A stretch of 64,000 nt of DNA. It comes from Escherichia coli. GTDB lineage: Bacteria; Pseudomonadota; Gammaproteobacteria; Enterobacterales; Enterobacteriaceae. Positions 1-43,385 of the stretch are shown piece by piece. Both the position numbers and the translations under genes were made by a program. The stretch is from assembly GCF_003991155.1 (NCBI RefSeq), contig NZ_CP031293.1. One strand, 5' to 3'. Positions within the stretch are counted from its first letter, which is position 1. Every line of letters begins with the position of its first letter. The notes beneath the pieces are model-generated. The model saw nothing but the letters and a program-made list of their open reading frames with translations, was not told the origin of the DNA and did no database searches.

Positions 1-249
1 TATTTTTAAAATTATGCCTAAGACTGAATAACTCGTTATATTTAAAACCGTTAGTAATAATTTTACGCCTTACTTTTTCCAGTTTCATTTATTATCACTC
101 CTTGAGATCTTTAAATTATTATAGTGTATTTTTTAAGTGAGTCAATGCATCAGAGAAAGATCATCAGAAGAACTCTTTTTGTACTAAATAATTCGCATTT
201 TATGTTTAAAAATTGAGATATTCCTCATTGTCTGAAGCTGTTTTTTATT

Positions 250-1450
250 GCTTATACATGATCAAATACTCCTTACATAATTAAGGAGAACAAAATGGAA
301 CTTAAAAAATTGATGGAACATATTTCTATTATTCCCGATTACAGACAAGTCTGGAAAGTGGAACATAAATTGTCTGATATTCTACTGCTGACTATTTGTG
401 CCGTTATTTCGGGTGCAGAAGGTTGGGAAGATATAGAGGATTTTGGGGAAACACATCTCGATTTTTTAAAACAATACGGTGATTTTGAAAATGGTATTCC
501 TGTTCACGATACCATTGCCAGAGTTGTATCCTGTATCAGTCCTGCAAAATTTCACGAGTGCTTTATTAACTGGATGCGTGACTGCCATTCTTCAGATGAT
601 AAAGACGTCATCGTAATTGATGGAAAAACACTCTGGCATTATTATGACAAGAGTCGCCGCAAGGGAGCGATTCATGTCATTAGTGCGTTCTCAACAATGC
701 ACAGTCTGGTCATCGGACAGATCAAGACGGATGAGAAATCCAATGAGATTACAGCTATCCCAGAACTTCTTAACATGCTGGATATTAAAGGAAAAATCAT
801 CACAACTGATGCGATGGGTTGCCAGAAAGATATTGCAGAGAAGATACAAAACAGGGAGGTGATTATTTATTCGCTGTAAAAGGAAACCAGGGGCGGCTAA
901 ATAAAGCCTTCGAGGAAAAATTTCCGCTGAAAGAATTAAATAATCCAGAGCATGACAGTTACGCAATGAGTGAAAAGAGTCACGGCAGAGAAGAAATCCG
1001 TCTTCACATTGTTTGCGATGTCCCTGATGAACTTATTGATTTCACGTTTGAATGGAAAGGTCTGAAGAAATTATGCGTGGCAGTCTCCTTTCGGTCAATA
1101 ATAGCAGAACAAAAGAAAGAGCCAGAAATGACGGTCAGATATTATATCAGTTCTGCTGATTTAACCGCAGAGAAGTTCGCCACAGCAATCCGAAACCACT
1201 GGCACGTGGAGAATAAGCTGCACTGGCGTCTGGACGTGGTAATGAATGAAGACGACTGCAAAATAAGAAGAGGAAACGCCGCAGAATTATTTTCAGGGAT
1301 ACGGCACATCGCTATTAATATTTTAACGAATGATAAGGTATTCAAGGCAGGGTTAAGACGTAAGATGCGAAAAGCTGCCATGGACAGAAACTATCTCGCG
1401 TCAGTCCTTGCGGGGAGCGGGCTTTCGTAATCTTTCCCTGGAGTGAGTAT
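250..1450 (+). mobile_element. ISAs1-family (H-repeat) insertion element; boundaries approximate
   Basis: Contains the H-repeat-associated transposase reading frame (295-1430); flanks are AT-rich non-coding DNA on the left and a 5'-truncated gene on the right. Terminal inverted repeats not mapped. Confidence 0.55.
295..1430 (+). pseudogene. ISAs1-family / H-repeat-associated transposase, frameshifted
   Basis: ORFs 295-879 ([18 protein letters not shown]...) and 819-1430 ([23 protein letters not shown]...) together match the ~378-aa H-repeat protein family (YhhI/YdcC type). The frame breaks in the A-run at 848-851 (caaaac), consistent with a 1-bp deletion. Confidence 0.8.
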
Positions 1451-1603
1451 TTTGATTTACTGAAATATCTTATTAGAAACGGATATATTGATGAAACATA
1501 TAATGACTATATAACATATTTCTATGAAAACAGTTTAAACCGGAGTGACAAAGCTTTTTTAAGAAGTATTTCCGATAAAAAAGGGAAAGATTTTTCTTAT
1601 GCT

Positions 1604-3448
1604 TTGAATAACCCCTCATTAATAGCAAGTCGATTACAACTTTATGATTATAGCCAGCAAGAAACGTTAAATTTTGATTTGTTGGATCACCTCTTGGATT
1701 CATTGACTCAACATACAACACAACTTAAGACATTTATATCTCAACTGAAAAAAGATAAAAATCTCCGATTTATTAAAGAGTACATGGACACTGAACGTAA
1801 TATTTCAAGGTTAATCCCTTTATTAAATCAGCAGTGGAGTGATTTTTTTCAATTGATGTTGAATGAAAAATTATATACACAACAACAAATAAAATCATAT
1901 TCCCTGGACAGTCTTTATTTTTCAAATCAAGACACTTTATTAAAAGTCAACCATAATGGCTGTCTATCACAGTATATATCTGAACATAAAACATATCTAA
2001 ATATAGAACAGCCTCAAATTCAAATGCTAATAGATAAGTTTAAATGTTTAGATATTTTATTTAAGAATTTATCATATAACAACTCAGAAGCATCTTTATT
2101 TTCAGCCGTATATAAAGAGTCACTTTATGAACTTAATTATCATAATTTAAAAGAGCTTATTTGCTATGAATACAAATGTGCAGACGAAGATAAAATCAAA
2201 CACCAAAACTTCACCATATTACTAAGCAATGCATCAACATATCTTTATAAAAAGATAGATAAAAATATCGAAAAATATATAGCTATAGTTCTCGAAAATT
2301 GTGAGAATAGTATAGCTGATGCTGAAAATGCAGTTGTTGTAATTATTAATAAATCAGGAATTGATGAGGAAATAAAAAAATCATACATAGCAAAACTCAA
2401 TAATAGATTGAGTGACTTAAGTAAAATAGATGAATCAAATATGTGGTCTTACTTATTAGACCAACGAAAAATAGAGTATACTGCTGAGAATATTATTTTT
2501 TATTTTTCTCAGCATAGTGAATTAGATGAAACAATAATTAAATTTATAGATAGCGAAAAATCTATTACACTAGACTATTATAGTGGGTTTACAGACGATA
2601 TCAAAGAGAGATTTTTCGACAAGGTCATCATTTGTGAACAAATTAGCGATAACAAATACTTCGAGATATTATCTTCATTAGACTATTGCTATGAATCATT
2701 TGATATATCCGGTTTGCAGGATGCGAAGATAAAAGTACTTATCGACACTAATATAATTCGAATGTCCATTCTGAATCTAGAGTTTCTAAGAACTACATAT
2801 CCTAATAACCTTATGCATTATATAAATAAAAATATAATCGACTATATTAAACTACAGACAGGTGAATCTGCTGTTAGTGACACAAATGAAATTTTGAACG
2901 TCTTAGAATTAGATATTGATGATTCACAAAAAGAAAAGCTATCAATGATAGTAGATACTCCAATCTCTATTCAAAATAATAAATACTCAACTCTCTTTAA
3001 GAAACACATCCTCACAAATAAATTAGATATAAATGACATCCCTTATCTCATAGAAAATTATGGCACATTAGTAGCACTTCAATCGACAATTCTAATCATT
3101 TTAAGTGGTCACGTCAATGAGGTAAAAGATCATGCTGATAAATTATCGATTAACTTGTTAGAGGTCTTAATAAAGGATGCTCATTTTATCCATGATGATA
3201 ATGTAGAATTATTTGTAAAGCAGATAACTAACATGAATAAAATACAAATCAAGAAGTTTCTAAAACTGATTAATTCTTCTGAGTTAACTATCTTATTAGA
3301 TAAAAAATTGGCATCGATAAAAATAAGCTCGTCTAATGAAAAAATACTTAAGAGTTTCATAACAAATGGATTAATAAAATCCTACAGCCAAAGTACTGAA
3401 GATCCTGAATCATACATAATAGATTTCCCTGAGGAGTTTCTTGATTAA
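1604..3448 (+). CDS. Hypothetical protein, very AT-rich (N/K/I/L-rich); reading frame is open upstream to 1358, so likely 5'-truncated by the IS
   Basis: 614-aa ORF starting at a TTG. The same frame stays open back through the 3' end of the ISAs1 element to a stop at 1355-1357. No recognisable motifs. Confidence 0.5.
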   Translation: MNNPSLIASRLQLYDYSQQETLNFDLLDHLLDSLTQHTTQLKTFISQLKKDKNLRFIKEYMDTERNISRLIPLLNQQWSDFFQLMLNEKLYTQQQIKSYSLDSLYFSNQDTLLKVNHNGCLSQYISEHKTYLNIEQPQIQMLIDKFKCLDILFKNLSYNNSEASLFSAVYKESLYELNYHNLKELICYEYKCADEDKIKHQNFTILLSNASTYLYKKIDKNIEKYIAIVLENCENSIADAENAVVVIINKSGIDEEIKKSYIAKLNNRLSDLSKIDESNMWSYLLDQRKIEYTAENIIFYFSQHSELDETIIKFIDSEKSITLDYYSGFTDDIKERFFDKVIICEQISDNKYFEILSSLDYCYESFDISGLQDAKIKVLIDTNIIRMSILNLEFLRTTYPNNLMHYINKNIIDYIKLQTGESAVSDTNEILNVLELDIDDSQKEKLSMIVDTPISIQNNKYSTLFKKHILTNKLDINDIPYLIENYGTLVALQSTILIILSGHVNEVKDHADKLSINLLEVLIKDAHFIHDDNVELFVKQITNMNKIQIKKFLKLINSSELTILLDKKLASIKISSSNEKILKSFITNGLIKSYSQSTEDPESYIIDFPEEFLD

Positions 3449-3492
3449 TGCTAATCTTTAACAAGATGTCATAAATACACTTCAACAAAGAA

Positions 3493-3528
3493 AAAACCAC
3501 CAGCATCTCAATTGCTGGTGGTTTTTCT
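3493..3528 (+). terminator. Rho-independent terminator downstream of the AT-rich gene
   Basis: aaaaaaccaccagcatctcaattgctggtggtttttc: GC stem ccaccagca/tgctggtgg followed by a T-run. Confidence 0.6.
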
Positions 3529-3577
3529 TCTCCTAATTATCAGGAATCACCTCACGTAGCGGTCGGATGCAGTAGAA

Positions 3578-3677
3578 AAATTGGTGGTCATTCTGGTGGT
3601 CTTGACAATCTCGATTTTTTGTTTTAGCTTACCAATCAGCCAGTTAATGGCTACGGCGATCCCAGTCAGAGGAGCCC
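3578..3677 (+). repeat. att-like repeat copy A (about 70 bp of island arm plus the last ~17 nt of tRNA-Asn)
   Basis: ttggtggtcattctggtggtcttgacaatctcgattttttgttttagcttaccaatcagccagttaatggctacggcgatcccagtcagaggagcc; the 3' end matches the tRNA-Asn acceptor/T-arm end (cagtcagaggagcc). Confidence 0.75.
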
Positions 3678-3683
3678 AATTTC

Positions 3684-3710
3684 TGAAAAACCCGCTTTTA
3701 TAGCGGGCTT
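3684..3710 (-). terminator. Hairpin terminator downstream of cbl
   Basis: cccgcttttatagcggg stem with flanking A/T runs, immediately 3' of the cbl stop on the minus strand. Confidence 0.5.
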
Positions 3711-3714
3711 TTCG

Positions 3715-4665
3715 CTATATCTGATAATCAATTTCCTCTTCACTGTTTTCCATCACCTGGCGCTTGATATCCTCAACTGACAGTCCTGCATTACAAAGTT
3801 CCAGAAAGCGCCAGACATAGTTACGTTGAAGTTGCCCTCGCTTCAGTCCCAACCAGACAGTATTAGCATCGAAAAGATGCCTCGTATCCAGACGGATTAA
3901 ATTCTTTTCCTCTTGTTCACCACTGGATTGTTCGGCAACTAATCCGATCCCCAGCCCAAGAGCAACATAGGTTTTAATGACATCAGAATCCTGCGCACTT
4001 AATACAATATCTGCCAGCAAACCTTTGCGGGCAAATGCGTCATCAATACGTGAGCGCCCCGTAATCCCCTGTCGGTAAGTAATTAACGGCCACTTCGCTA
4101 TTGATTCCAGCGTCAACGGTGTAATTTGCGTCAAGGGATGATCGAGTGGAACAAGCAAACTATGGTGCCAACGAAACCACGGGAAGGCGACGAGCTGCGG
4201 GTCATTACTCAAACGCTCGCTGGCGATACCAATATCAGCTTCGCCATTTTGCAACAACGTCGCAATTTCCTGTGGTGTACCCTGGATTAGCTCCAGCCGA
4301 ACCTCCGGGAAAAGTTCGCGAAAAGCTTTAATGACCTCAGGCAAGCTATAACGTGCCTGAGTATGCGTCGTTGCAATAGTGAGAACGCCAGACGTATCGT
4401 TGGTAAACAGGTCTGCAAGCCGACGAACATTACTGGCTTCATTCAGAATACGTTCTGCAATGACCAGTAATGCTTTGCCCGGTTCAGTCATGCCCAGCAG
4501 TCGCTTACCTCGTCGAACAAATATTTCGATGCCAAGTTCATCCTCCAGTTCCCGAATATGACGGCTAACGCCTGACTGTGAGGTAAAAAGCATATTCGCA
4601 ACCTCTGTCAGGTTGTAATCCTGACGTGCAGCCTCGCGGATTATCTTTAGTTGTTGGAAATTCAC
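3715..4665 (-). CDS. cbl: LysR-family regulator Cbl (CysB-like)
   Basis: 316-aa ORF MNFQQLKIIREAARQDYNLTEVANMLFTSQSGVSRHIRELEDELGIEIFVRRGKR...; N-terminal HTH plus LysR substrate-binding region; sits next to nac as in E. coli. Confidence 0.85.
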   Translation of the reverse strand: MNFQQLKIIREAARQDYNLTEVANMLFTSQSGVSRHIRELEDELGIEIFVRRGKRLLGMTEPGKALLVIAERILNEASNVRRLADLFTNDTSGVLTIATTHTQARYSLPEVIKAFRELFPEVRLELIQGTPQEIATLLQNGEADIGIASERLSNDPQLVAFPWFRWHHSLLVPLDHPLTQITPLTLESIAKWPLITYRQGITGRSRIDDAFARKGLLADIVLSAQDSDVIKTYVALGLGIGLVAEQSSGEQEEKNLIRLDTRHLFDANTVWLGLKRGQLQRNYVWRFLELCNAGLSVEDIKRQVMENSEEEIDYQI

Positions 4666-4766
4666 GGTAAACTCCGGGCAGTTCAGATATCCCGTTATTG
4701 TTAAAGTCTAATGCCCGGCATAACAAATAATAAAAACCCGCATCTTATTCCATCCCGATATAACGC

Positions 4767-5684
4767 TTAGCTCACCAATTGCCACTGCCTTTTTTCCATC
4801 ACTGGAGAATTCATCACTGACATTAACAACTCTTTCACTGCTTGCGCCTGTGGTGATAAGTTCGCTCTGGCGGGTAAATTTAATGACAAAGAGAGACTCA
4901 TGGAAGGAGTGGTAATGCGTGACATCCAACCATTTACTGCGCCACATAACGAACGCGCGGCCGATTCGGGTAATACTGCAACGCCCATGCCGCTGGCAAT
5001 CGCTGCGGTAAGCGTGGCAATAGACTCAATTTCACCAATGACTTTTGCCGTGAGTCGCCGTAGGGAAAAAGCCTCATCAACACGAAGTCTAATAGCACTG
5101 TAATCACTTGGGAGAAAAAGGTTCATTTGCGCAATAGCATTAACATCAACGCTTTGCCCCGGGCAATCTTGAGTTCCTACCAGAAAAAGATCTTCTTTCA
5201 GTAAAGCCTGACTGGATACACCAGCCACAGGGGAATGCTCATAAATCACCGCCATATCGAGTTGGTGATTTATCAGTTTTTCGTTAAGTACTGCACCGCT
5301 ATTTTCATGAAGATAAATAACGACCTCCGGGAATTCAGCGCGAACCGCCTGTAATAAGGGCATGGTGATGGATGACGCAGCGGTTCCTGGCGCAAAGCCA
5401 ATCGAGACTTGCCCCGATAATGCCTGACCAACGTTATGCACCGCCAGTTGGGCCTGCTCACACTGACGTAAAATGGCCCGCGCATGGGTATAGAGAATTT
5501 TTCCGGCGTCAGTTGGCGTAACACCCCGTTTTGTGCGAATCAAAAGTTGTTGATTTAACTCACCTTCCAGTGTGGCAACCTGCTGACTGAGCGCTGGTTG
5601 TGCGATATGCAATACTTCAGCAGCCTGGGTCAGGCTACCAATATCTACAATTTTTACGAAGTATTTCAGGCGTCTGAAGTTCAT
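4767..5684 (-). CDS. nac: Nitrogen assimilation control protein Nac (LysR family)
   Basis: ORF 4767-5714; likely start at MNFRRLKYFVKIVDIGSLTQAAEVLHIAQPALSQQV... (5684); LysR HTH. Confidence 0.85.
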   Translation of the reverse strand: MNFRRLKYFVKIVDIGSLTQAAEVLHIAQPALSQQVATLEGELNQQLLIRTKRGVTPTDAGKILYTHARAILRQCEQAQLAVHNVGQALSGQVSIGFAPGTAASSITMPLLQAVRAEFPEVVIYLHENSGAVLNEKLINHQLDMAVIYEHSPVAGVSSQALLKEDLFLVGTQDCPGQSVDVNAIAQMNLFLPSDYSAIRLRVDEAFSLRRLTAKVIGEIESIATLTAAIASGMGVAVLPESAARSLCGAVNGWMSRITTPSMSLSLSLNLPARANLSPQAQAVKELLMSVMNSPVMEKRQWQLVS

Positions 5685-5961
5685 GTTGCCTCCGGTTTTT
5701 AAGAATCGGCCCAAGTGCCGCCATTACTTACAACCAGATTGCAAGATGCTTGCCAGTTTTATTTTGGCGTTGATGTACAAGCTAACCAACTGTCAAATAA
5801 GAGATTATGATAGTTTTGTCACTCGATCTTTTTATTAGAACTCGCGTTCTCTGCCCCAAGACATAAAGGTATGCACCACGATGGTTCATTACCAAAAAGA
5901 TTGAAAGCTCACCATTTTGTCGAAATTGGCAGCAAACAAACAAAAAAATGCATTTCACCCT

Positions 5962-5990
5962 TTGACATCACCATGCACTGCCATTAATAT
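5962..5990 (+). promoter_or_regulatory. Sigma70-like promoter for tRNA-Asn
   Basis: TTGACA (5962-5967), 17-bp spacer, TAATAT (5985-5990), about 18 bp upstream of the tRNA 5' end. Confidence 0.55.
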
Positions 5991-6008
5991 GCGCCCCGTT
6001 CACACGAT

Positions 6009-6084
6009 TCCTCTGTAGTTCAGTCGGTAGAACGGCGGACTGTTAATCCGTATGTCACTGGTTCGAGTCCAGTCAGAGGAGCCA
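6009..6084 (+). tRNA. tRNA-Asn (GTT anticodon)
   Basis: tcctctgtagttcagtcggtagaacggcggactgttaatccgtatgtcactggttcgagtccagtcagaggagcca; 76 nt, anticodon loop ctGTTaa. By recalled K-12 layout this is asnT-like by its downstream context and asnV-like by its upstream context. Confidence 0.95.
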
Positions 6085-6226
6085 AATTTTAGTCTTGAGA
6101 CATCTCTATAAGTCTCAGGATAGTTAAAAAACAAGAACTTATCTTTACCCGGTTGTCTCGCAAGAGGCTGCTGGGTTTCTTGACATCCATAGTTTTTAGG
6201 GGCCTAATCAGGGGCCTCACGGTTCG

Positions 6227-7513
6227 GTGAGCAAACGGAGCCCCCACGCTATGGCATTAACAGACACCGCTATTCGCAAGACTAAACCCTCTGACAAACC
6301 CTTCAAAATGACGGACAGTTCTGGACTGTACCTGTTGATCAAACCTAACGGCTCAAAACTCTGGTATATGAAGTACCGCATCGACGGCAAAGAGAAGAAA
6401 CTGGCCTTTGGCCCCTACCCGGAGATCTCCCTGTTGCAGGCTCGCCGCCTGCGCGAAACAGCACGCAATAACATTCATGCAGGCGTCGATCCGGCTGCGG
6501 TGAAGCAAACCGAGAAACAGAAGAGGAAAAACGGGCAGACGTTCAGCCAGATCGCCATCAACTGGCATAGCGAGCATAAACGCTGGTCTGAGCATTACGC
6601 GAAAACGGTTATGCGCAGGCTGGAAATGTACGTTTTCCCGGATATCGGGGATCGCCTTATCGAGGAGATCGAAACGGAGGATTTGTTATTCACGTTGCGC
6701 AAGGTAGAGAGTAAAGGCTTTCTGGAAATCACCGCGCGGCTGAAAAACTACGTCACCGATATCATGCACTACGCGATGAAAAAGAAACTGCTCAAAGCGA
6801 ACCCGGCGCTGTATCTGGACGGTGAGTTTGCCGCGCCAGAAACCAGTCACTACCCGGCCCTGTCGCTGGACAAATTGCCTGAGCTTTTAACCCGGACGGA
6901 TAGCTACTGCGGCAGGCTGCTGACAAAATACGCGCTTAAGCTGTCGCTGATTTTTTTTGTGCGCTCCAGCGAACTACGCTTTGCGCGCTGGAGTGAGATC
7001 GACTGGCAGCAGAAGTTATGGATAATCCCGGAAGAGCGCGAACAGATCGAAAACGTGCGCTTCTCTTACCGGGGGTCGAAAATGAAAATCCAGCACATTG
7101 TGCCGCTGTCGGATCAGGCGATTGCGATACTGAAACAGATCGAGGCCCTCTCCGGGCATCTGGCCTTTATTTTTCCCGGCGAATACGACCAGGACAAGTG
7201 CATGAGCGACAACACCGTCAACAAGGCGCTGCGCGTGATGGGTTACGACACCAAAAAGGATATCTGCGGGCATGGCTTCCGGGCAATGGCCTGTAGTGCG
7301 CTGAGCGAATCGGGATTATGGAGCAAAGAAGCCATTGAAAAGCAGATGAGCCACCAGGAAAGAAACAGCGTCCGTGCTGCCTATATTCACAAGGCTGAAT
7401 ATCTGGAGGAACGGATCGAGATGATGCAGTGGTGGTCAGATTATCTTGATGCAAACAGTGACGGGTATGTCTCGGCTTACCAGTATGCCCGCCGCCTAAA
7501 ACAGGCGTCGTAA
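6227..7513 (+). CDS. P4-type tyrosine integrase, island-associated
   Basis: 428-aa ORF directly 3' of tRNA-Asn. C-terminal ...HGFRAMACSALSESGLWSKEAIEKQMSHQERNSVRAAYIHKAEYLEERI... carries the catalytic H-x-x-R ... Y region. Possible alternative start at MALTDTAIRK (6251). Confidence 0.85.
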   Translation: MSKRSPHAMALTDTAIRKTKPSDKPFKMTDSSGLYLLIKPNGSKLWYMKYRIDGKEKKLAFGPYPEISLLQARRLRETARNNIHAGVDPAAVKQTEKQKRKNGQTFSQIAINWHSEHKRWSEHYAKTVMRRLEMYVFPDIGDRLIEEIETEDLLFTLRKVESKGFLEITARLKNYVTDIMHYAMKKKLLKANPALYLDGEFAAPETSHYPALSLDKLPELLTRTDSYCGRLLTKYALKLSLIFFVRSSELRFARWSEIDWQQKLWIIPEEREQIENVRFSYRGSKMKIQHIVPLSDQAIAILKQIEALSGHLAFIFPGEYDQDKCMSDNTVNKALRVMGYDTKKDICGHGFRAMACSALSESGLWSKEAIEKQMSHQERNSVRAAYIHKAEYLEERIEMMQWWSDYLDANSDGYVSAYQYARRLKQAS

Positions 7514-7636
7514 GTTAACAAAGCATCAGAGGGGGAAAAGGTATATTCCCCCTTTGTGCGTTTCAAATGTCGATGCTGACTGTAGCTTTTAAACTAAATT
7601 ACTGGATAAAAAGTAGCTTTTAAGCTACTATCTTTT

Positions 7637-7954
7637 ATGAAAACGATAAAGACCTACATAACTGCCGACGGGCGAGATCTGTATGCAGAGTTTTTTAAAG
7701 GGTTACGCGACCCCATCGCGAAGGCAAAGATCGCTTCCCGGATCAACCGGATGGCTTCGGACAATTTTGGCGACCATAAGCCCTGCCGGGAAGGTGTCTG
7801 GGAACTCAGGATAGATCAAGGGGCTGGGTATCGGGTTTATTACAGCCTGGTGGATGGAGAAGTCGTCCTGTTGATTCTGGCTGGCGACAAGCGTACGCAG
7901 GATGCAGATATAGATGAGGCTATTCGCTGCCTCAAAGACTATTTGAAGAGGTGA
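7637..7954 (+). CDS. Type II toxin, RelE/ParE superfamily (addiction module killer protein)
   Basis: 105-aa ORF MKTIKTYITADGRDLYAEFFKGLRDPIAKAKIASRINRMASDNFGDHKPCREGVWELRIDQGAGYRVYYSLVDGEVVLLILAGDKRTQ...; upstream of and 3 nt from an HTH antitoxin gene. Confidence 0.7.
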   Translation: MKTIKTYITADGRDLYAEFFKGLRDPIAKAKIASRINRMASDNFGDHKPCREGVWELRIDQGAGYRVYYSLVDGEVVLLILAGDKRTQDADIDEAIRCLKDYLKR

Positions 7955-7957
7955 TGT

Positions 7958-8266
7958 ATGGCGAAAGAACGTTTATATGATGATGTCATGGTGGAAGCGC
8001 TCCGGGAAGATCCTGCTTTTGCTCAGGCCTATCTGCATCAGGCATTTCTGGATATGGATGAAGATGGCGGTCAGGAAGCTTTTTTACTCGCGTTACGCCA
8101 TGTTGTTGAAGCGCGGGGAGGAATGGCGACGGTTGCCCAGAAAGCCGGTGTATCGCGTGAATCACTGTACCGCACGCTCTCCCCGACCGGCAACCCGACA
8201 CTGAAAACACTCCGCAGCGTCGTCCACGCCGCAGGTTTTCAGTTCTCTGCGCTGGCAAGTGCCTGA
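7958..8266 (+). CDS. HTH-type antitoxin (addiction module antidote protein)
   Basis: 102-aa ORF with C-terminal HTH (ATVAQKAGVSRESLYRTLSPTGNPTLKTLRSVVHAAG); adjacent to the toxin gene. Confidence 0.7.
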   Translation: MAKERLYDDVMVEALREDPAFAQAYLHQAFLDMDEDGGQEAFLLALRHVVEARGGMATVAQKAGVSRESLYRTLSPTGNPTLKTLRSVVHAAGFQFSALASA

Positions 8267-8388
8267 GTAGTTTTACATTTTGCAGCGATAATATAAATTG
8301 TAAATCATAATCCCTCCGTTGCTCTGTTCTGAGCAACGGATTACTTTGCATATTATCTGCTTTGCTAATCCATCAATTTTTAATTACC

Positions 8389-8682
8389 TTACATGGAAGC
8401 AACATACTCCATTAAATTATCTAATAAAAAATCAACCTTACTTATACCTTCATTTACATTATCGGCATAGATAAGTTCTACGAGCTTCATCCAACTTAAA
8501 TTGGAACGTACATTGTATTGTAAAAGGAGCCACTCTCTAAATCCCTCTAACATTTTACCGTCAAAGGAAAAATCCATCCCTAGTATAAAAGCCACAGTGT
8601 TTTCATAGTTATTTTCAAGTAGATACATATCGATATGCTTCTTAAAAAAAACAATTTTTTTTAGGAGGATATTTTTATTCAT
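8389..8682 (-). CDS. Putative immunity protein for the orphan Rhs C-terminal toxin
   Basis: 97-aa AT-rich ORF immediately 3' of the orphan Rhs toxin fragment (2-nt gap). Confidence 0.5.
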   Translation of the reverse strand: MNKNILLKKIVFFKKHIDMYLLENNYENTVAFILGMDFSFDGKMLEGFREWLLLQYNVRSNLSWMKLVELIYADNVNEGISKVDFLLDNLMEYVASM

Positions 8683-8684
8683 AA

Positions 8685-9299
8685 TTAAAATCCAAAATTG
8701 ATTGCATCAGGATATTGCCATAACTCTTTATATTCTTGTAATGGTAAACCGTCTGAGCCAGTAAAGGCATCATAAACCCGACCATCTTTTACTACAACGT
8801 CGTGATATGCCCAACCGGGATTCGTGCCTCTGTATTTACCTAATGAAGGAGCTCCGAAATCAGGTCTAATTCTTGCAATATCACCACCGATTTTCTTTTG
8901 TACCCACAATGCAAAATCTTCACAACCATTCCAGTTCTCAGAATTTTTAATATCCGCAGCCTTCCATACACAATCAGCGTTAAGGCCTAATGGATCAATC
9001 CAATTTAACGGATCTTTGACGTAACTGTATGGATTAATACCTCCCAACACCCCGGTTGGATCTGCCGAAATATACTGCGCAGTATCAGGATCATAGTACC
9101 GGAACCGGTTATAGTACAGTCCTGATTCGGCATCTTCATACTGCCCCGGAAAACGCAGGCGGCAGTCAGGTGCATCATCCCTGTTCCTGCCTTCTTCCCG
9201 GCCCCAGAGCTGTTGTTTTCCCCGCCAGACAATGGTGCCGCCCTCGGTCAGCAGTTCCTGGACACGGCCGACCGTATCCGTCACCGCGTAATGCAACAA
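8685..9299 (-). CDS. Orphan Rhs C-terminal fragment with a distinct toxin tip
   Basis: 204 aa: conserved end of the Rhs core (GRVQELLTE...RLRFPGQYED.ESGLYYNRFRYYDPDTAQYISADPTGVLGGINPYSYVKDPLNWIDPLGL) followed by a divergent ~95-aa C-terminus. About 300 bp (9000-9300) nearly identical to 10140-10440 in the main Rhs gene. Confidence 0.8.
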   Translation of the reverse strand: MLHYAVTDTVGRVQELLTEGGTIVWRGKQQLWGREEGRNRDDAPDCRLRFPGQYEDAESGLYYNRFRYYDPDTAQYISADPTGVLGGINPYSYVKDPLNWIDPLGLNADCVWKAADIKNSENWNGCEDFALWVQKKIGGDIARIRPDFGAPSLGKYRGTNPGWAYHDVVVKDGRVYDAFTGSDGLPLQEYKELWQYPDAINFGF

Positions 9300-9442
9300 G
9301 CCTTTCTCATAACGCGCCAGCGGTGTAAAACTTCCCGGTTCGTATATCCAGCGGATGGCGTTTTCATCATCTGGCTTGCCGTCCTGGCTGACCGGAATTT
9401 CTTGGTTAGATGACCGTCAGTTAAATGGATATTATCATTCCA

Positions 9443-9784
9443 TTAAAAATCGGAATGATCCATATATTCTATATGCTCATCAGAAAGTCCATCTGGATAT
9501 AACTCTCTTGGATAATCACTATCTAAAATTGCTAGGAAGTTATTTATAGTATTTTCCAATGCCTCATCTACTGTTTTTCCCCAGCCAATAGCACCTTCGG
9601 GACAATCATCAAATTTCCGTTTAATCATTACATTTGTAATCCCCATGTAACTCCCATCCTGAGACTCTCGTATTTTTATTTTTACTTTTGCGCTAGGGAT
9701 AACACCAAACATCCAAATTACAAACTCGGCTTCAACTTTCTCTACTTTAGATACACTGCGTATTTTCATTTGATGCCAGCCCAT
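9443..9784 (-). CDS. Putative immunity protein for the main Rhs toxin
   Basis: Small ORF 10 nt 3' of the Rhs stop; likely start at MGWHQMKIRS (9784). No motif-based support. Confidence 0.5.
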   Translation of the reverse strand: MGWHQMKIRSVSKVEKVEAEFVIWMFGVIPSAKVKIKIRESQDGSYMGITNVMIKRKFDDCPEGAIGWGKTVDEALENTINNFLAILDSDYPRELYPDGLSDEHIEYMDHSDF

Positions 9785-9794
9785 ATCTTTTCCT

Positions 9795-12700
9795 CTATAA
9801 ACGACCAAAAGAGACAATTTCCCCTGTATCTACCGCAACATCAATATATCTTCCGTTCTTTCTATATCTCCACACATTTTCAGTATAACCAGAAACTTTG
9901 GTTGGTTTTATTCTTCTCAAGTTCTCAGAAAAAACCTTAGCTTTATTTAGATATTGCTCTACCGTTTCTGCACCAACTTCACGACCATGTTTTCTGAAGT
10001 GCTCCAGTAATGACTCTGCCGGAGTATCCCAACTTCCTTTACTCCATAGTTTTTTACAATTTACTTCTTGCAGGAATGCAAATAATGCCGATAAACCTAA
10101 AGGGTCAATATAACTAAATGGGTTCTGTACATATGAATATGGATTTAATCCCCCAAGTAACCCAATGGGATCTGCCGAAATATACTGCGCCGTATCAGGA
10201 TCATAGTACCTGAACCGGTTATAGTACAGTCCTGATTCCGTATCTTCGTACTGCCCCGGAAAACGCAGGCGGCAGTCAGGCGCATCATCCTTGTTTCTGC
10301 CTTCTTCCCGGCCCCAAAGTTGCTGTTTTCCCCGCCAGACAATCGTGCCGTCTTCGGTCAGCAACTCCTGGACACGACCGACCGTATCCGTCACCGCGTA
10401 ATGCAGCAAGCCTTTCTCATAACGTGCCAGCGGTGTAAAACTTCCCGGTTCATATATCCAGCGAATGGCATTTTCATATTCTGGTTTGCCATCAGTACCA
10501 ACAGGAATTTCTTCGGTTAACTGATCGCCATTCCAGTGGAAATCCATTCCGGACTTATCACGGTTGGTACACCGTTTGCTGATGCGCCTGCCAAACGGGT
10601 CGTATTTATACTCCCAGCGTTCCCCCTCCGGCGTTTCAAGCCCGGTAAGCTGACTTCTGGCATCCCAGCGATAGCGCCATTCGAGCGGACGATAGCCGCC
10701 TTTATCGACCAGTTTCTCCACCAGGCGACCATTAGCATCGTACGTCCAGGTAATATTGTGCTCATTCACCACCCGGACAAATTTTCCCTCTTCCGGCTTT
10801 CCTGTGTCCGGGTTGATGCGGTGTGTCTGATGCCGCCAGCCTTTGTGCTCTCTGGAAACAACTCTTCCATGCCGCAACTGCTGGTGTGTCTCGCTTTCCA
10901 GCACCTCATTTACCCATGTCTGGCGGCGGGCAATATTCAGGTTTTTGTCATAAGTGAACAGTTCCTCACACAGCGGAAACTCCCGGGAATCGCCCGTCCA
11001 GGTGGCATGGCTTACCTGGTCGTTAACCGTCATATTGTTGAAGGCTGATCCCCGCAGCGAGTCTGATATTACCGTCAGGTTGTACGCCTTGTCATACAGC
11101 CACTGGCGCTCCAGGCTTTTGTTCCGTTCGTACGGCCCGGCCTGGTGGTCCCCGGCATTCTGCTTCGCTGGCATCCCTGTGCGCGTGTATGCCAGCGTCT
11201 GGTAAAACCCGGCCTCGCTCCGCCTGGACGTTTCCAGGCCGCGCAGGTCGTGCTCAAATGTCAGCGGGGCATGGTCCGCTATCTGCCAGGATGCCAGATG
11301 CCCCATCAGGTTTCGGGTAAAGCGTTCTGTGATACCTGCTGTGGTGCGCTGTGTGACCGTATCCAGGTCAGGGTCGTAACGGTATTCTGTGCGCCTGCCG
11401 TTCAGCGTTTCGGCAACAATCTGGTTTGCATCGTTATATTCAAATGTAACGGTGGCATCGTCATTCTTCGCTTCCACCAGACGACGCTGCGTGTCGTAAC
11501 GAAATGTGGTGACACTCAGAGTTCGGTCACTGTTGCCCTGTGTGACTTCCTCGTCCGTCACCTGGTCATTCACGTTGTAGCGGCGGTTAAGGTGAGTGCC
11601 GTCCGGGAAGCTGGTGCGAATACAACGCCCGACGGCATCGTAGGTGTAGTTCAGCGTGCGTCCGGTGAAGTCTGTTTCTGCTACAAGCTGCCCGGCTTTA
11701 TCATATTTAAGACGGTAGCGCTCGCCTTCGGCGTTGGTAATTTCGGTCAGGCGGGTCAGTTTATCGTAGCGACACGCCAGCCGCTCGCCGTCAGGACGCA
11801 CCAGAGCCGTGAGCAGATCGAATGCACCGTATTCGTAACGGGTGGTTTTGCCCTCGCCATCGGTAAAGCTTTCCGGTAGCTTTTCGCTGTTCTGGCGCAT
11901 CAGTTCCCGCACGCCGTCCGGGCGCTGGATTTCTTCCACGCAGCCCTGTGGCCCGGCGTGGATTTTGCTGTGACGAAACTGCGTGGTGAAGCCAAGTGGG
12001 TCTTTCACACTTAACAGTCGGCCCAGCATATCCTGTTCGGTCTGCGTGATGCCGCCGTCTGGCGCAACAGTCTCGCGCACCTGATGCAGGGCGTCATGAC
12101 TCCAGCACCAGGTGGCCCCGCCCGGCAGAATCCGTGCAAGCAAATCACCCTGTTCACTGTAGCTGAACTGCTGTTTCCGGCCCTGAGGGTCGATCAGGCT
12201 GATTATGCTGCCCCGATCATCATAGACCCATTGCCACGCCTGATTATCAGTTGTCGACAGCCGGGTTAACTGACCGGTATCATTATACTCGTAGAACAGG
12301 CCATAGCCGCCCGGCAGGGCAACCTGGATAACCTCACCTTCCCGGTTATAGCGGTACGCCGTGGTACGCCCCAGCGCATCGGTGCGTGACTGAAGCCGGG
12401 CATTATTCCAGACGGTAATTTCTTCCCGCCCCAGCGGATCGATACAGCGGGTGACCAGGCCGTCCTCGTTATACCAGTAACGGGTTTCGCCCCCTTCTGC
12501 ATCCAGGTAGGTGGTGCATTTTTCATCATCGTTATAGATAAAGCGGTCATCGAAGTAGCCTTCCGTTGACAGTGTGCTGACAGCGCGCCCCTGCGGATCA
12601 TAGCGGATATCCACACAGGTTTTGTCCGTATCCCGCCAGCGGGTCATAAAGCCTTCTGATGTGTACTCATGCCATAAATGCGAGAACTGGAAGGTATCGC

Positions 12701-13883
12701 ATTCTGCCATAAAACCATTGTCATCATACTGGCAGGTCACAAGACGCTGACGCTGCGGCGTTGCCAGGTCAATGCTCATCAGCTGAGCCTGTTGCCAGGC
12801 AAGGGCGAGCATATAGCCATCGCTGTGACGGATTTCTGTCAGCAGACCATCAGTGCGGATAAAATCAATCCGGTTGCCATAATTATCGAAGACAGCGGAC
12901 AACCGCCAGACGCCATTGCCTGCCGGGGAAAAGAGCTGTGTCTGCTGCGAACGGCGATCGAAAACGCTCACGCCATCGCGCAGGCTTCCCGTCAGCCGGT
13001 AGTACGCCTGGCGTGAGTTCACTGCACCGCGAAAGATACCGTCCTGCGGCAGGCGGTAATACAGTACAACGCCTTCACTGTCGGTAAAATGCAGCCGGTT
13101 ACCCTGTATCGTCAGCGACGCTGACCACTCATCGGTCCATTTCGGGCCGAAAATCCCGGTCCCCCTGGCCTGTGAGCGGTAAAAACGCGAGAGCGTCAGC
13201 GGCAGGGAACCCGGCAGCGAAAGCACGCTGAAATGCTGGAGAAAATCGCCGGTGCCAATATCCACAGGCTCACCGGGTTTGGTGCACAACTGAGCACCAA
13301 CACATTTACTCTGATCACCAGTTCCCTCGGTTTCACCTTTAATATTTGCGCCATCCTGGCCTTCGGGTATGACATCATCCGCCAACTTTTCTGCGTCACT
13401 GACAACATCGTCTGCTTTGTTTACCTTCAGCAGATCGGCGGTGAATTTCCCCGCCGCTGCTTCTTCTCGTGCCAGTTTACTGGCAGTCCGCATCGCTCTA
13501 AGACCCACGAACCCGCCTCGGGCCAGACCATATCCTCCCAGCGCCAGCGAGCCATGGTCATAAATCATGCCGCCAATTTCCTGGTTCCTGTTGCTCATTT
13601 CCAGACGGTACATGTCCAGATTGAAATCTCCCGCATGCTCCCGGAGATCTCCGCCCATGTTGTACATATCCTCGCCAATATCATCCATGCCCATCGCAGA
13701 AAGCATGGCGCCGTTCATCTGCATTTCTCCGGCATACTGCATGGTGGCCCCCTGGCCTATCATCGTCGCCATATCCGGGAACTGGTTCCAGAATGCTTTG
13801 GCAGCACCAATAGCCAAATCAAGCTGGACTGCCGAAGCTTCAATTTTCGCCCGACTTTCATCCATCTGGATCATCAACATCAT
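9795..13883 (-). CDS. Rhs-family YD-repeat toxin (core plus variable C-terminal toxin domain); frame open upstream to the IS boundary at 13994
   Basis: 1362-aa ORF with many YD repeats (YRYDxxGRL, YxYDxxGxL), the core-terminating ...RYYDPDTAQYISADPIGLLGGLNPYSYVQNPFSYIDPLGL motif, then a ~95-aa unrelated tip. N-terminus is not the canonical E. coli Rhs MSGKPAARQGD start and is Gly/Ala/Met-rich. Confidence 0.9.
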   Translation of the reverse strand: MMLMIQMDESRAKIEASAVQLDLAIGAAKAFWNQFPDMATMIGQGATMQYAGEMQMNGAMLSAMGMDDIGEDMYNMGGDLREHAGDFNLDMYRLEMSNRNQEIGGMIYDHGSLALGGYGLARGGFVGLRAMRTASKLAREEAAAGKFTADLLKVNKADDVVSDAEKLADDVIPEGQDGANIKGETEGTGDQSKCVGAQLCTKPGEPVDIGTGDFLQHFSVLSLPGSLPLTLSRFYRSQARGTGIFGPKWTDEWSASLTIQGNRLHFTDSEGVVLYYRLPQDGIFRGAVNSRQAYYRLTGSLRDGVSVFDRRSQQTQLFSPAGNGVWRLSAVFDNYGNRIDFIRTDGLLTEIRHSDGYMLALAWQQAQLMSIDLATPQRQRLVTCQYDDNGFMAECDTFQFSHLWHEYTSEGFMTRWRDTDKTCVDIRYDPQGRAVSTLSTEGYFDDRFIYNDDEKCTTYLDAEGGETRYWYNEDGLVTRCIDPLGREEITVWNNARLQSRTDALGRTTAYRYNREGEVIQVALPGGYGLFYEYNDTGQLTRLSTTDNQAWQWVYDDRGSIISLIDPQGRKQQFSYSEQGDLLARILPGGATWCWSHDALHQVRETVAPDGGITQTEQDMLGRLLSVKDPLGFTTQFRHSKIHAGPQGCVEEIQRPDGVRELMRQNSEKLPESFTDGEGKTTRYEYGAFDLLTALVRPDGERLACRYDKLTRLTEITNAEGERYRLKYDKAGQLVAETDFTGRTLNYTYDAVGRCIRTSFPDGTHLNRRYNVNDQVTDEEVTQGNSDRTLSVTTFRYDTQRRLVEAKNDDATVTFEYNDANQIVAETLNGRRTEYRYDPDLDTVTQRTTAGITERFTRNLMGHLASWQIADHAPLTFEHDLRGLETSRRSEAGFYQTLAYTRTGMPAKQNAGDHQAGPYERNKSLERQWLYDKAYNLTVISDSLRGSAFNNMTVNDQVSHATWTGDSREFPLCEELFTYDKNLNIARRQTWVNEVLESETHQQLRHGRVVSREHKGWRHQTHRINPDTGKPEEGKFVRVVNEHNITWTYDANGRLVEKLVDKGGYRPLEWRYRWDARSQLTGLETPEGERWEYKYDPFGRRISKRCTNRDKSGMDFHWNGDQLTEEIPVGTDGKPEYENAIRWIYEPGSFTPLARYEKGLLHYAVTDTVGRVQELLTEDGTIVWRGKQQLWGREEGRNKDDAPDCRLRFPGQYEDTESGLYYNRFRYYDPDTAQYISADPIGLLGGLNPYSYVQNPFSYIDPLGLSALFAFLQEVNCKKLWSKGSWDTPAESLLEHFRKHGREVGAETVEQYLNKAKVFSENLRRIKPTKVSGYTENVWRYRKNGRYIDVAVDTGEIVSFGRL

Positions 13884-13992: not shown

Positions 13993-15244
<1,252 letters not shown>

Positions 15245-15252
15245 CCACTACA

Positions 15253-41763: not shown

Positions 41764-43013
<1,250 letters not shown>

Positions 43014-43016
43014 CCA

Positions 43017-43385
43017 CTACAATGAGAGCATAAGTACACCTGCCGTCATTTCTGGTACGGCAACGCCCCCCGGTGTATAAGCTGTCCCGTTAATGATGAT
43101 GTCACAGGCGGGTTTCAGGGGGGCGAGGTCGCTTTCGCGCAGTACCGGAGATGTGTTCATCTCCCCGGCATACTCATCTTCCACACACAGCGGTAGCGGC
43201 GGGTTTTCGATAAGTTGGGTTTGCCACTGACCATTTTCGTCCCGTTGCAGCCGGAAGCCCGTTTTCATGGCGATAACGCGGTGACGTTCGCTATGTTTAT
43301 CATCCATCGCATATTCTATCGCTGAAAACGGCGTCAGGTTACGAAATTCCATATTGCACCCCGATCCCGTCTGTACCTGTCGCAA
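43017..43385 (-). CDS. Hypothetical 121-aa protein (possible effector-associated adaptor); last codons now replaced by IS sequence
   Basis: MEFRNLTPFSAIEYAMDDKHSERHRVIAMKTGFRLQRDENGQWQ...; the reading frame runs 5 nt into IS copy 2. Confidence 0.5.
   Translation of the reverse strand: MRQVQTGSGCNMEFRNLTPFSAIEYAMDDKHSERHRVIAMKTGFRLQRDENGQWQTQLIENPPLPLCVEDEYAGEMNTSPVLRESDLAPLKPACDIIINGTAYTPGGVAVPEMTAGVLMLSL

Follow-up and report, generated by a model that had tools for sequence, protein, structure and literature searches.

Near the start of the 64,000-nucleotide stretch of Escherichia coli DNA that we analysed (hereafter, the window), two overlapping open reading frames (ORFs), each resembling a part of a transposase, raise the question of whether they are two genes, the two parts of one gene joined by programmed frameshifting, or the remains of a single gene and, in the last case, whether the lesion belongs to the genome or to its assembly. 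Multiple lines of comparison converge on the answer that the feature is one frameshifted ISAs1/H-repeat pseudogene and not two genes, as RefSeq already annotates it; in other words, it is an ordinary defunct copy, already annotated, of an insertion sequence that is common in E. coli, and not a novel element. More specifically, it is highly probable that the locus consists of a structurally complete H-repeat, the transposase gene of which was pseudogenised by the inherited loss of one A, and which lies at a junction that lacks a target-site duplication.

The upstream ORF (ORF1, 295-879) encodes 194 aa and the downstream ORF (ORF2, 819-1430), which lies in the -1 frame, 203 aa. At the lesion, C847 is followed by four A's and then by C852, and the upstream frame reads ...GAG AAG ATA CAA AAC AGG GAG GTG ATT ATT TAT TCG CTG TAA. 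Addition of one A to the run yields a single 378-aa ORF without an internal stop, and this 1-bp loss is the sole frame-breaking lesion in the transposase gene. The proposal of the first-pass annotation that the two ORFs together make one full-length protein therefore holds: they match consecutive parts of the same profiles, and a single restored A merges them into one ORF.

With respect to family membership, both ORFs match the NCBIfam profile NF033564 (transpos_ISAs1; cut-off 70 bits), ORF1 on positions 1-160 (E=8.5e-67, 225.6 bits) and ORF2 on positions 157-314 (E=1.7e-49, 168.7 bits), and the intact orthologous allele described below matches it continuously on positions 1-314 (406.6 bits, E=6.8e-122). 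Similarly, the 200 positions of the Pfam domain DDE_Tnp_1 (PF01609) are shared out between ORF1 (3-99) and ORF2 (97-200) and are continuous in the intact allele, and DDE_Tnp_1_assoc (PF13808) is found at residues 8-94, in ORF1. Consecutive profile matches of this kind are far beyond chance. Together with the similarity to H-repeats, the NF033564 and DDE_Tnp_1 matches bear out the assignment to the ISAs1 family and the H-repeats that had been made from the letters of the sequence. The motifs VIDGKT (D109), TTDAMG (D172) and HWHVEN (E306) are all found, and D109, D172 and E306 are the putative catalytic DDE triad, judging from these motifs and from the split Pfam domain. When the intact transposase was compared by sequence with solved structures, there were no matches at E<=1. 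The single uninterrupted ORF that characterizes ISAs1 elements is missing from the window copy and present in the intact orthologous allele; given that this orthologue and nearly all of ~18,000 H-repeat copies have a single ORF, the window copy is a mutated member of the family and not a different kind of element. The coordinates of the element, its parts and its right-hand neighbour are collected in Table 1.

Table 1. Features of the window H-repeat and of the gene remnant joined to its right end (coordinates are those of the window).
Feature	Position	Strand	Details
Complete H-repeat/ISAs1-family insertion sequence	151..1440	+	1290 bp (1291 bp if the missing A is put back)
Left terminal inverted repeat CAGAGAAAGAT	151..161	+	aligns with CAGGGAAAGAT of ISEc1
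Shine-Dalgarno-like AAGGAG	283..288	+	6 nt before ATG 295; putative function, read from sequence
5' part of transposase pseudogene	295..879	+	codons 1-185 authentic, then 9 out-of-frame codons and stop
Domains of the 5' part	in 295..879		DDE_Tnp_1_assoc and first half of DDE domain (DGK D109 and TTDAMG D172 motifs)
Substitution T (V19)	350	+	C (A19) in intact orthologous allele and ISEc1; derived
Substitution A (K144)	725	+	G (R144) in intact orthologous allele and ISEc1; derived
A-run, site of the 1-bp deletion	848..851	+	four A's; five in intact copies
3' part of transposase pseudogene	852..1430	+	-1 frame; authentic codons 187-378 plus stop
Domain of the 3' part	within 852..1430		second half of DDE domain, including HWHVEN motif (E306)
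Right terminal inverted repeat ATCTTTCCCTG	1430..1440	+	overlaps last base of transposase stop codon
yobI remnant fused to right end of the element	1442..3448	+	3'-terminal 668 codons of a 1242-codon gene for a YobI-family P-loop NTPase

Given the AAGGAG sequence upstream of ATG 295, ORF1 is probably still translatable. Neither the mechanically assigned start of ORF2 (TTG 819) nor its first ATG (966) is preceded by a Shine-Dalgarno sequence. The frameshift follows Gln185 and thus falls between the TTDAMG and HWHVEN motifs; since it cuts the Pfam catalytic domain in the middle, the prediction is that neither product can be a working transposase. A promoter and terminator scan of window positions 1-1700 gave a count of 9 compared with 5.6 +/- 2.6 expected from shuffled sequence, which is not above expectation, and therefore no promoter is claimed for the transposase gene. 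Immediately beyond the left end of the H-repeat there is a near-consensus sigma-70 promoter-like site with 11/12 matches (TTGACT, 16 nt, TATAAT; window 145..118, minus strand), which is directed toward a small hypothetical gene on the minus strand.

In two strains, 980-2 and UID2309220003, the locus is found among identical neighbours and reads ACAAAAACAG, with five A's; their gene is an intact 1137-bp ORF for the 378-aa protein WP_100792585.1, to which PGAP gives the generic name 'ISAs1 family transposase' and not ISEc1. Thus, both the 1-bp deletion that the first-pass annotation had placed in the A-run and its prediction of how the restored protein would read are matched by a natural allele at the same locus, which has five A's at 848 and an identical reading, and the alignment to intact H-repeat copies that had been proposed as a check finds five A's in this allele as well as in the adjacent ISEc1. 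Over window positions 200-1500, the allele of the two strains differs from the window at three sites only, namely the A-run, 350 and 725, and at all three it agrees with ISEc1, the outgroup copy. By parsimony, the window states are therefore derived, and the window lineage has gained one frameshift and two nonsynonymous substitutions.

Comparative genomic analysis of 5426 complete E. coli genomes puts this allele in perspective. H-repeat copies that are >95% identical occur in 5342 of them; the best place has 95-99% identity to the query in 4907 records, and 4919 records contain a place that covers at least 80% of the 1301-bp query. The locus itself is present in 30 genomes, 28 with four A's (a run length that is based on agreement among assemblies) and 2 with five. 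The window is chromosomal DNA of E. coli: 27 complete genomes match its positions 200-1500 at 100% identity, and positions 1-9500 are identical to strain 2016C-3878 (NZ_CP029747.1), in which RefSeq/PGAP annotates "ISAs1 family transposase" as a frameshifted pseudogene. With a 66-bp probe across the site, the exact four-A sequence was recovered from 31 records, 28 of them at the window locus, and nearly all the other ~18,000 H-repeat copies matched by the probe, in 5,243 genomes, have five A's. Moreover, throughout the 30 genomes four A's always occur with T350 and A725, and five A's with C350 and G725; when one representative of each group is compared over ~12 kb, the five-A strain differs also by a T6/T7 indel and by two flanking SNPs. 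Many laboratories, hosts and countries contributed to the 28 four-A assemblies, and the sources include humans, livestock, pets and wastewater. As judged from these sequences, the four-A deletion is genuine and vertically inherited in one E. coli lineage (28/5426 complete genomes).

The remaining four-A states are singletons in already degraded H-repeats of three unrelated genomes: ybfD in H1, a copy in G5 and the yafV locus in SCU-313, so that two belong to the RhsC-linked ybfD region and one to the yafV locus. Over the 5 kb of the G5 assembly that were examined, several other genes are also called as frameshifted, and the three singletons could be assembly errors or independent slips at the run. 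The T6/T7 difference is a second 1-bp homopolymer difference, T6 here and T7 in the intact-allele strains, located 7 bp upstream of window position 1; it disrupts the gene for the 121-aa hypothetical protein WP_075861615.1 (start at window ~88, minus strand), which is annotated only in the T7 strains. The four-A lineage thus has two homopolymer deletions within ~860 bp.

Could the missing A be an assembly or sequencing artefact, the true genome having five A's and an intact gene? Homopolymer miscounts do occur in long-read assemblies, and the singletons in three unrelated genomes, along with the other frameshift calls in G5, are what such errors might produce; however, four or five bases make a short run for errors of this kind, 28 independent complete assemblies agree on four A's, and the perfect linkage of the A-count to two in-gene SNPs across 30 genomes, together with the further nearby differences that track it in the representatives compared, forms a phylogenetic and not a random pattern. 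The assembly error that the first-pass annotation had named as its refuting outcome is thereby answered indirectly, and we consider an artefact extremely unlikely. The same grade is given to a programmed -1 ribosomal frameshift, or transcriptional slippage, that would produce one transposase as in IS1 and IS3. Although ORF2, in the -1 frame, overlaps ORF1 and the presumed shift site is A-rich, the 807-877 overlap contains no X XXY YYZ slippery heptamer, four A's are far below the run length required for slippage of RNA polymerase, and the family norm is one ORF, with five A's in nearly all of the ~18,000 copies and an intact orthologue. Furthermore, PGAP marks an IS3 gene of the region as 'programmed frameshift' and the window gene as 'frameshifted'. 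This candidate was rejected for the lack of a slippery heptamer in the overlap and for the single-ORF structure of the relatives.

Two other alternatives accept the deletion and differ in its history or its consequences. If the five-A allele were a secondary repair of an older four-A state, through reversion or through gene conversion by ISEc1, one could understand why the three differences of the intact allele all match ISEc1, the only other copy in those genomes, and why the 1.1-kb gene contains half of the differences, three out of six, that were counted over ~12 kb (Poisson P about 0.02). Conversion, however, would have had to change 350, 725 and 848 and yet skip >15 intervening sites where both alleles differ from ISEc1, which amounts to three separate micro-patches, and with ISEc1 as the outgroup it is more parsimonious to place three derived changes in the lineage of the window. 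With the intervening differences unconverted, gene conversion is an unlikely source of the intact allele, and we regard secondary repair in general as very improbable; which allele is older makes no difference to what the window copy is today. Alternatively, the 194-aa N-terminal product might have been kept as an inhibitor or regulator of the neighbouring ISEc1, one that binds the ends without catalysis in the manner of IS1 InsA, IS911 OrfA or the Tn5 inhibitor, and as a trans-dominant inhibitor it would stabilise the T6SS/Rhs orphan-toxin array against H-repeat rearrangement. The good Shine-Dalgarno sequence before an intact DDE_Tnp_1_assoc domain, the stability of the allele across 28 genomes and the presence of a closely related intact copy next door are compatible with such a role, but the two nonsynonymous changes in the retained part fit decay, nothing points to selection, the neighbouring small gene has also been hit by a homopolymer deletion, DNA binding by the DDE_Tnp_1_assoc domain is not established, and clonal persistence is the neutral expectation. 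Retention as an inhibitor is thus very improbable.

We therefore return to the inherited loss of one A from an otherwise complete H-repeat. Under this reading, an event of the replication-slippage type would have removed one A from a five-A run and produced the pseudogene. Translation from ATG 295 is expected to leave the true frame after Gln185 and to stop nine codons later, and the resulting 194-aa product would contain the N-terminal domain and the first two putative catalytic aspartates and would lack the glutamate-bearing half. Given this truncation and a downstream half that appears to have no ribosome-binding site of its own, the copy is predicted to be unable to make transposase. As both inverted repeats are retained, it could in principle move only with enzyme supplied in trans by ISEc1, and with both ends kept and a near-identical intact transposase encoded 1.65 kb away, trans-mobilisation is conceivable; the genomes with this locus hold only these two H-repeat copies. 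The term 'non-autonomous', applied to the window copy by the first-pass annotation, is a reasonable inference, but since transposition of E. coli H-repeats has not been observed, intact copies included (PMC3032704), 'inactivated' is to be understood as a statement on coding capacity, not on loss of mobility.

Structurally, the element is complete. Similarity to the neighbouring intact ISEc1 spans ~151 to ~1440, and the family-type ends are present in the form of 11-bp terminal inverted repeats (10/11 complementary) that enclose 1290 bp, a size within the roughly 1.2-1.5 kb expected of the family; the right end can be placed only to within 1-2 nt, as the element and the target gene have GG at 1440-1441 in common. 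Elsewhere in the 64-kb window no other H-repeat fragments were found, so that this is the sole copy. A stretch of about 14 nt that follows the left inverted repeat on its inner side (~164-177) reads TCAGAAGAACTC… here and CGTAACGCTGCT… in ISEc1, two unrelated sequences, and may represent a subterminal variable patch that distinguishes H-repeat subtypes. A direct target-site duplication, of a length typical of the family, is expected for ISAs1 elements. At the ends of the window element there is none: the flanks GTCAATGCAT and GAGTGAGTAT do not match, the left flank being Rhs-array DNA and the right flank the interior of yobI. An AGTGAGT 7-mer (136-142 and 1442-1448) was rejected as a duplication given that it is not adjacent to the left end, and is taken for a coincidence or microhomology. 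The missing duplication fits a rearranged junction and is not evidence against family membership.

On the left side, the gene order leads from a type VI secretion system (T6SS) cluster, complete and outside the window, through Hcp, VgrG, a DUF2169 protein, a 4.4-kb PAAR-Rhs effector and orphan Rhs tips with imm11 to the intact ISEc1, a DUF4225 gene, a small hypothetical gene and the window H-repeat, 1.65 kb downstream of ISEc1. The copy thus lies downstream of Rhs core and C-terminal-tip modules, where H-repeats are expected, and occupies the classical position at the end of an Rhs array.

On the right side, the element opens straight into a reading frame, that of yobI, at a breakpoint ~1721 bp into the gene. 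The first ~574 codons are gone, including the whole YobI-ATPase domain (residues 53-423, PF20693, E=1e-113); the remnant has no start codon before TTG 1604, and PGAP annotates a 554-aa 'hypothetical protein' from ATG ~1785. NCBIfam, PADLOC and Pfam detected nothing significant in the remnant, and its identity derives from the full-length orthologue alone. The 3' DNA of yobI was found in 44 complete genomes, 30 with the H-repeat locus and 14 at ~99.5% identity; several of the 14 are annotated as YobI, and the two inspected (SY038 and 94-3024) have a full-length 3729-bp gene without an H-repeat. The intact island has the order tRNA-Asn, two integrase genes, a gene for an AAA-domain protein, yobI, an HNH endonuclease gene, an AAA ATPase gene and cbl. 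A simple-insertion intermediate (yobI 5' part, H-repeat, yobI 3' part) was not detected in any of the 44 genomes with yobI 3' DNA among the 5,426 searched. The segment with the DUF4225 and hypothetical genes occurs only in the same 30 genomes and so offers no independent view of the ancestral right flank. The different origins of the flanks and the lack of a target-site duplication indicate that the junction probably arose by an H-repeat-associated event, either recombination between copies of the element or a deletion next to it, not by simple insertion; such an event would have joined the Rhs/orphan-toxin array to the 5'-truncated yobI. In this interpretation, the junction is the trace of a replacement, in which a T6SS/Rhs island with H-repeats at its end took the place of part of an older island associated with tRNA-Asn and the ATPase half of a YobI-family NTPase gene was removed.

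Several further features of the region were observed. A ~98-bp sequence at window 3577-3674 occurs twice in the locus with the intact yobI island (~11147-11244 and ~14927-15024), where the two repeats flank the pair of HNH endonuclease and AAA-family ATPase genes; the pair is absent from the window, so that beside cbl this cassette has either been gained by insertion or disappeared between short direct repeats. At window 6009-8266, a tyrosine integrase gene (6227-7513) and a RelE/ParE toxin-antitoxin pair (7637-8266) come after a tRNA-Asn (GTT), and 9795-13883 contains a large Rhs gene on the minus strand; together they look like another island at a tRNA-Asn in the asn-tRNA hotspot region. In addition, the window contains two copies of an IS3-family element (13995-15252 and 41764-43021), each of 1258 bp with a pair of 115-aa and 248-aa ORFs that match NF033516; they are in direct orientation, 99.9% identical and 27.8 kb apart, and might function as a composite unit or provide the substrate of a deletion.

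The relevance of the locus beyond correct annotation is small, and its uses are those of a lineage marker and a signpost of an island junction. The combination of four A's with T350 and A725 is a clean marker of a globally spread E. coli clone.

Among known systems, the closest is ISEc1, the H-repeat (H-rpt) of E. coli Rhs elements, with which the window copy shares ~96-97% nucleotide identity over the whole element, a size of ~1291 bp, 11-bp terminal inverted repeats and a site downstream of Rhs C-terminal tips. In contrast to ISEc1, it has the 1-bp deletion in the A5 run, V19, K144 and the ~14-nt patch at about 164-177; between its repaired protein and the transposase of the adjacent ISEc1, 8 of 378 residues are different. 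ISPmar4 of Paracoccus, a demonstrably mobile member of the ISAs1 family that has been captured on trap plasmids (PMC3281130), is similar in matching NF033564, in combining DDE_Tnp_1_assoc with DDE_Tnp_1 and in its single-ORF organisation, whereas the window copy cannot encode the enzyme and, according to the E. coli W genome paper, transposition of H-repeats in E. coli has not been observed (PMC3032704). The two-ORF transposases of IS1 and IS3 resemble the window copy in having two overlapping ORFs, the second in the -1 frame. Unlike them, the window copy lacks a slippery heptamer, its split is not conserved, and one ORF is both its ancestral and its family-wide state; the genuine two-ORF arrangement can be seen in the two IS3 copies of the same window. 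Finally, K-12 H-repeat loci go by the names ybfD, ydcC and others in the RefSeq annotation, and the defective copies at ybfD/ybfQ (by RhsC) and at the yafV locus are, like the window copy, pseudogenised ISAs1 transposases beside Rhs. Those copies have extra truncations, internal stops and singleton four-A states, whereas the window copy is full length, retains both ends and has a single frame-breaking lesion that is fixed in a lineage of 28 genomes.
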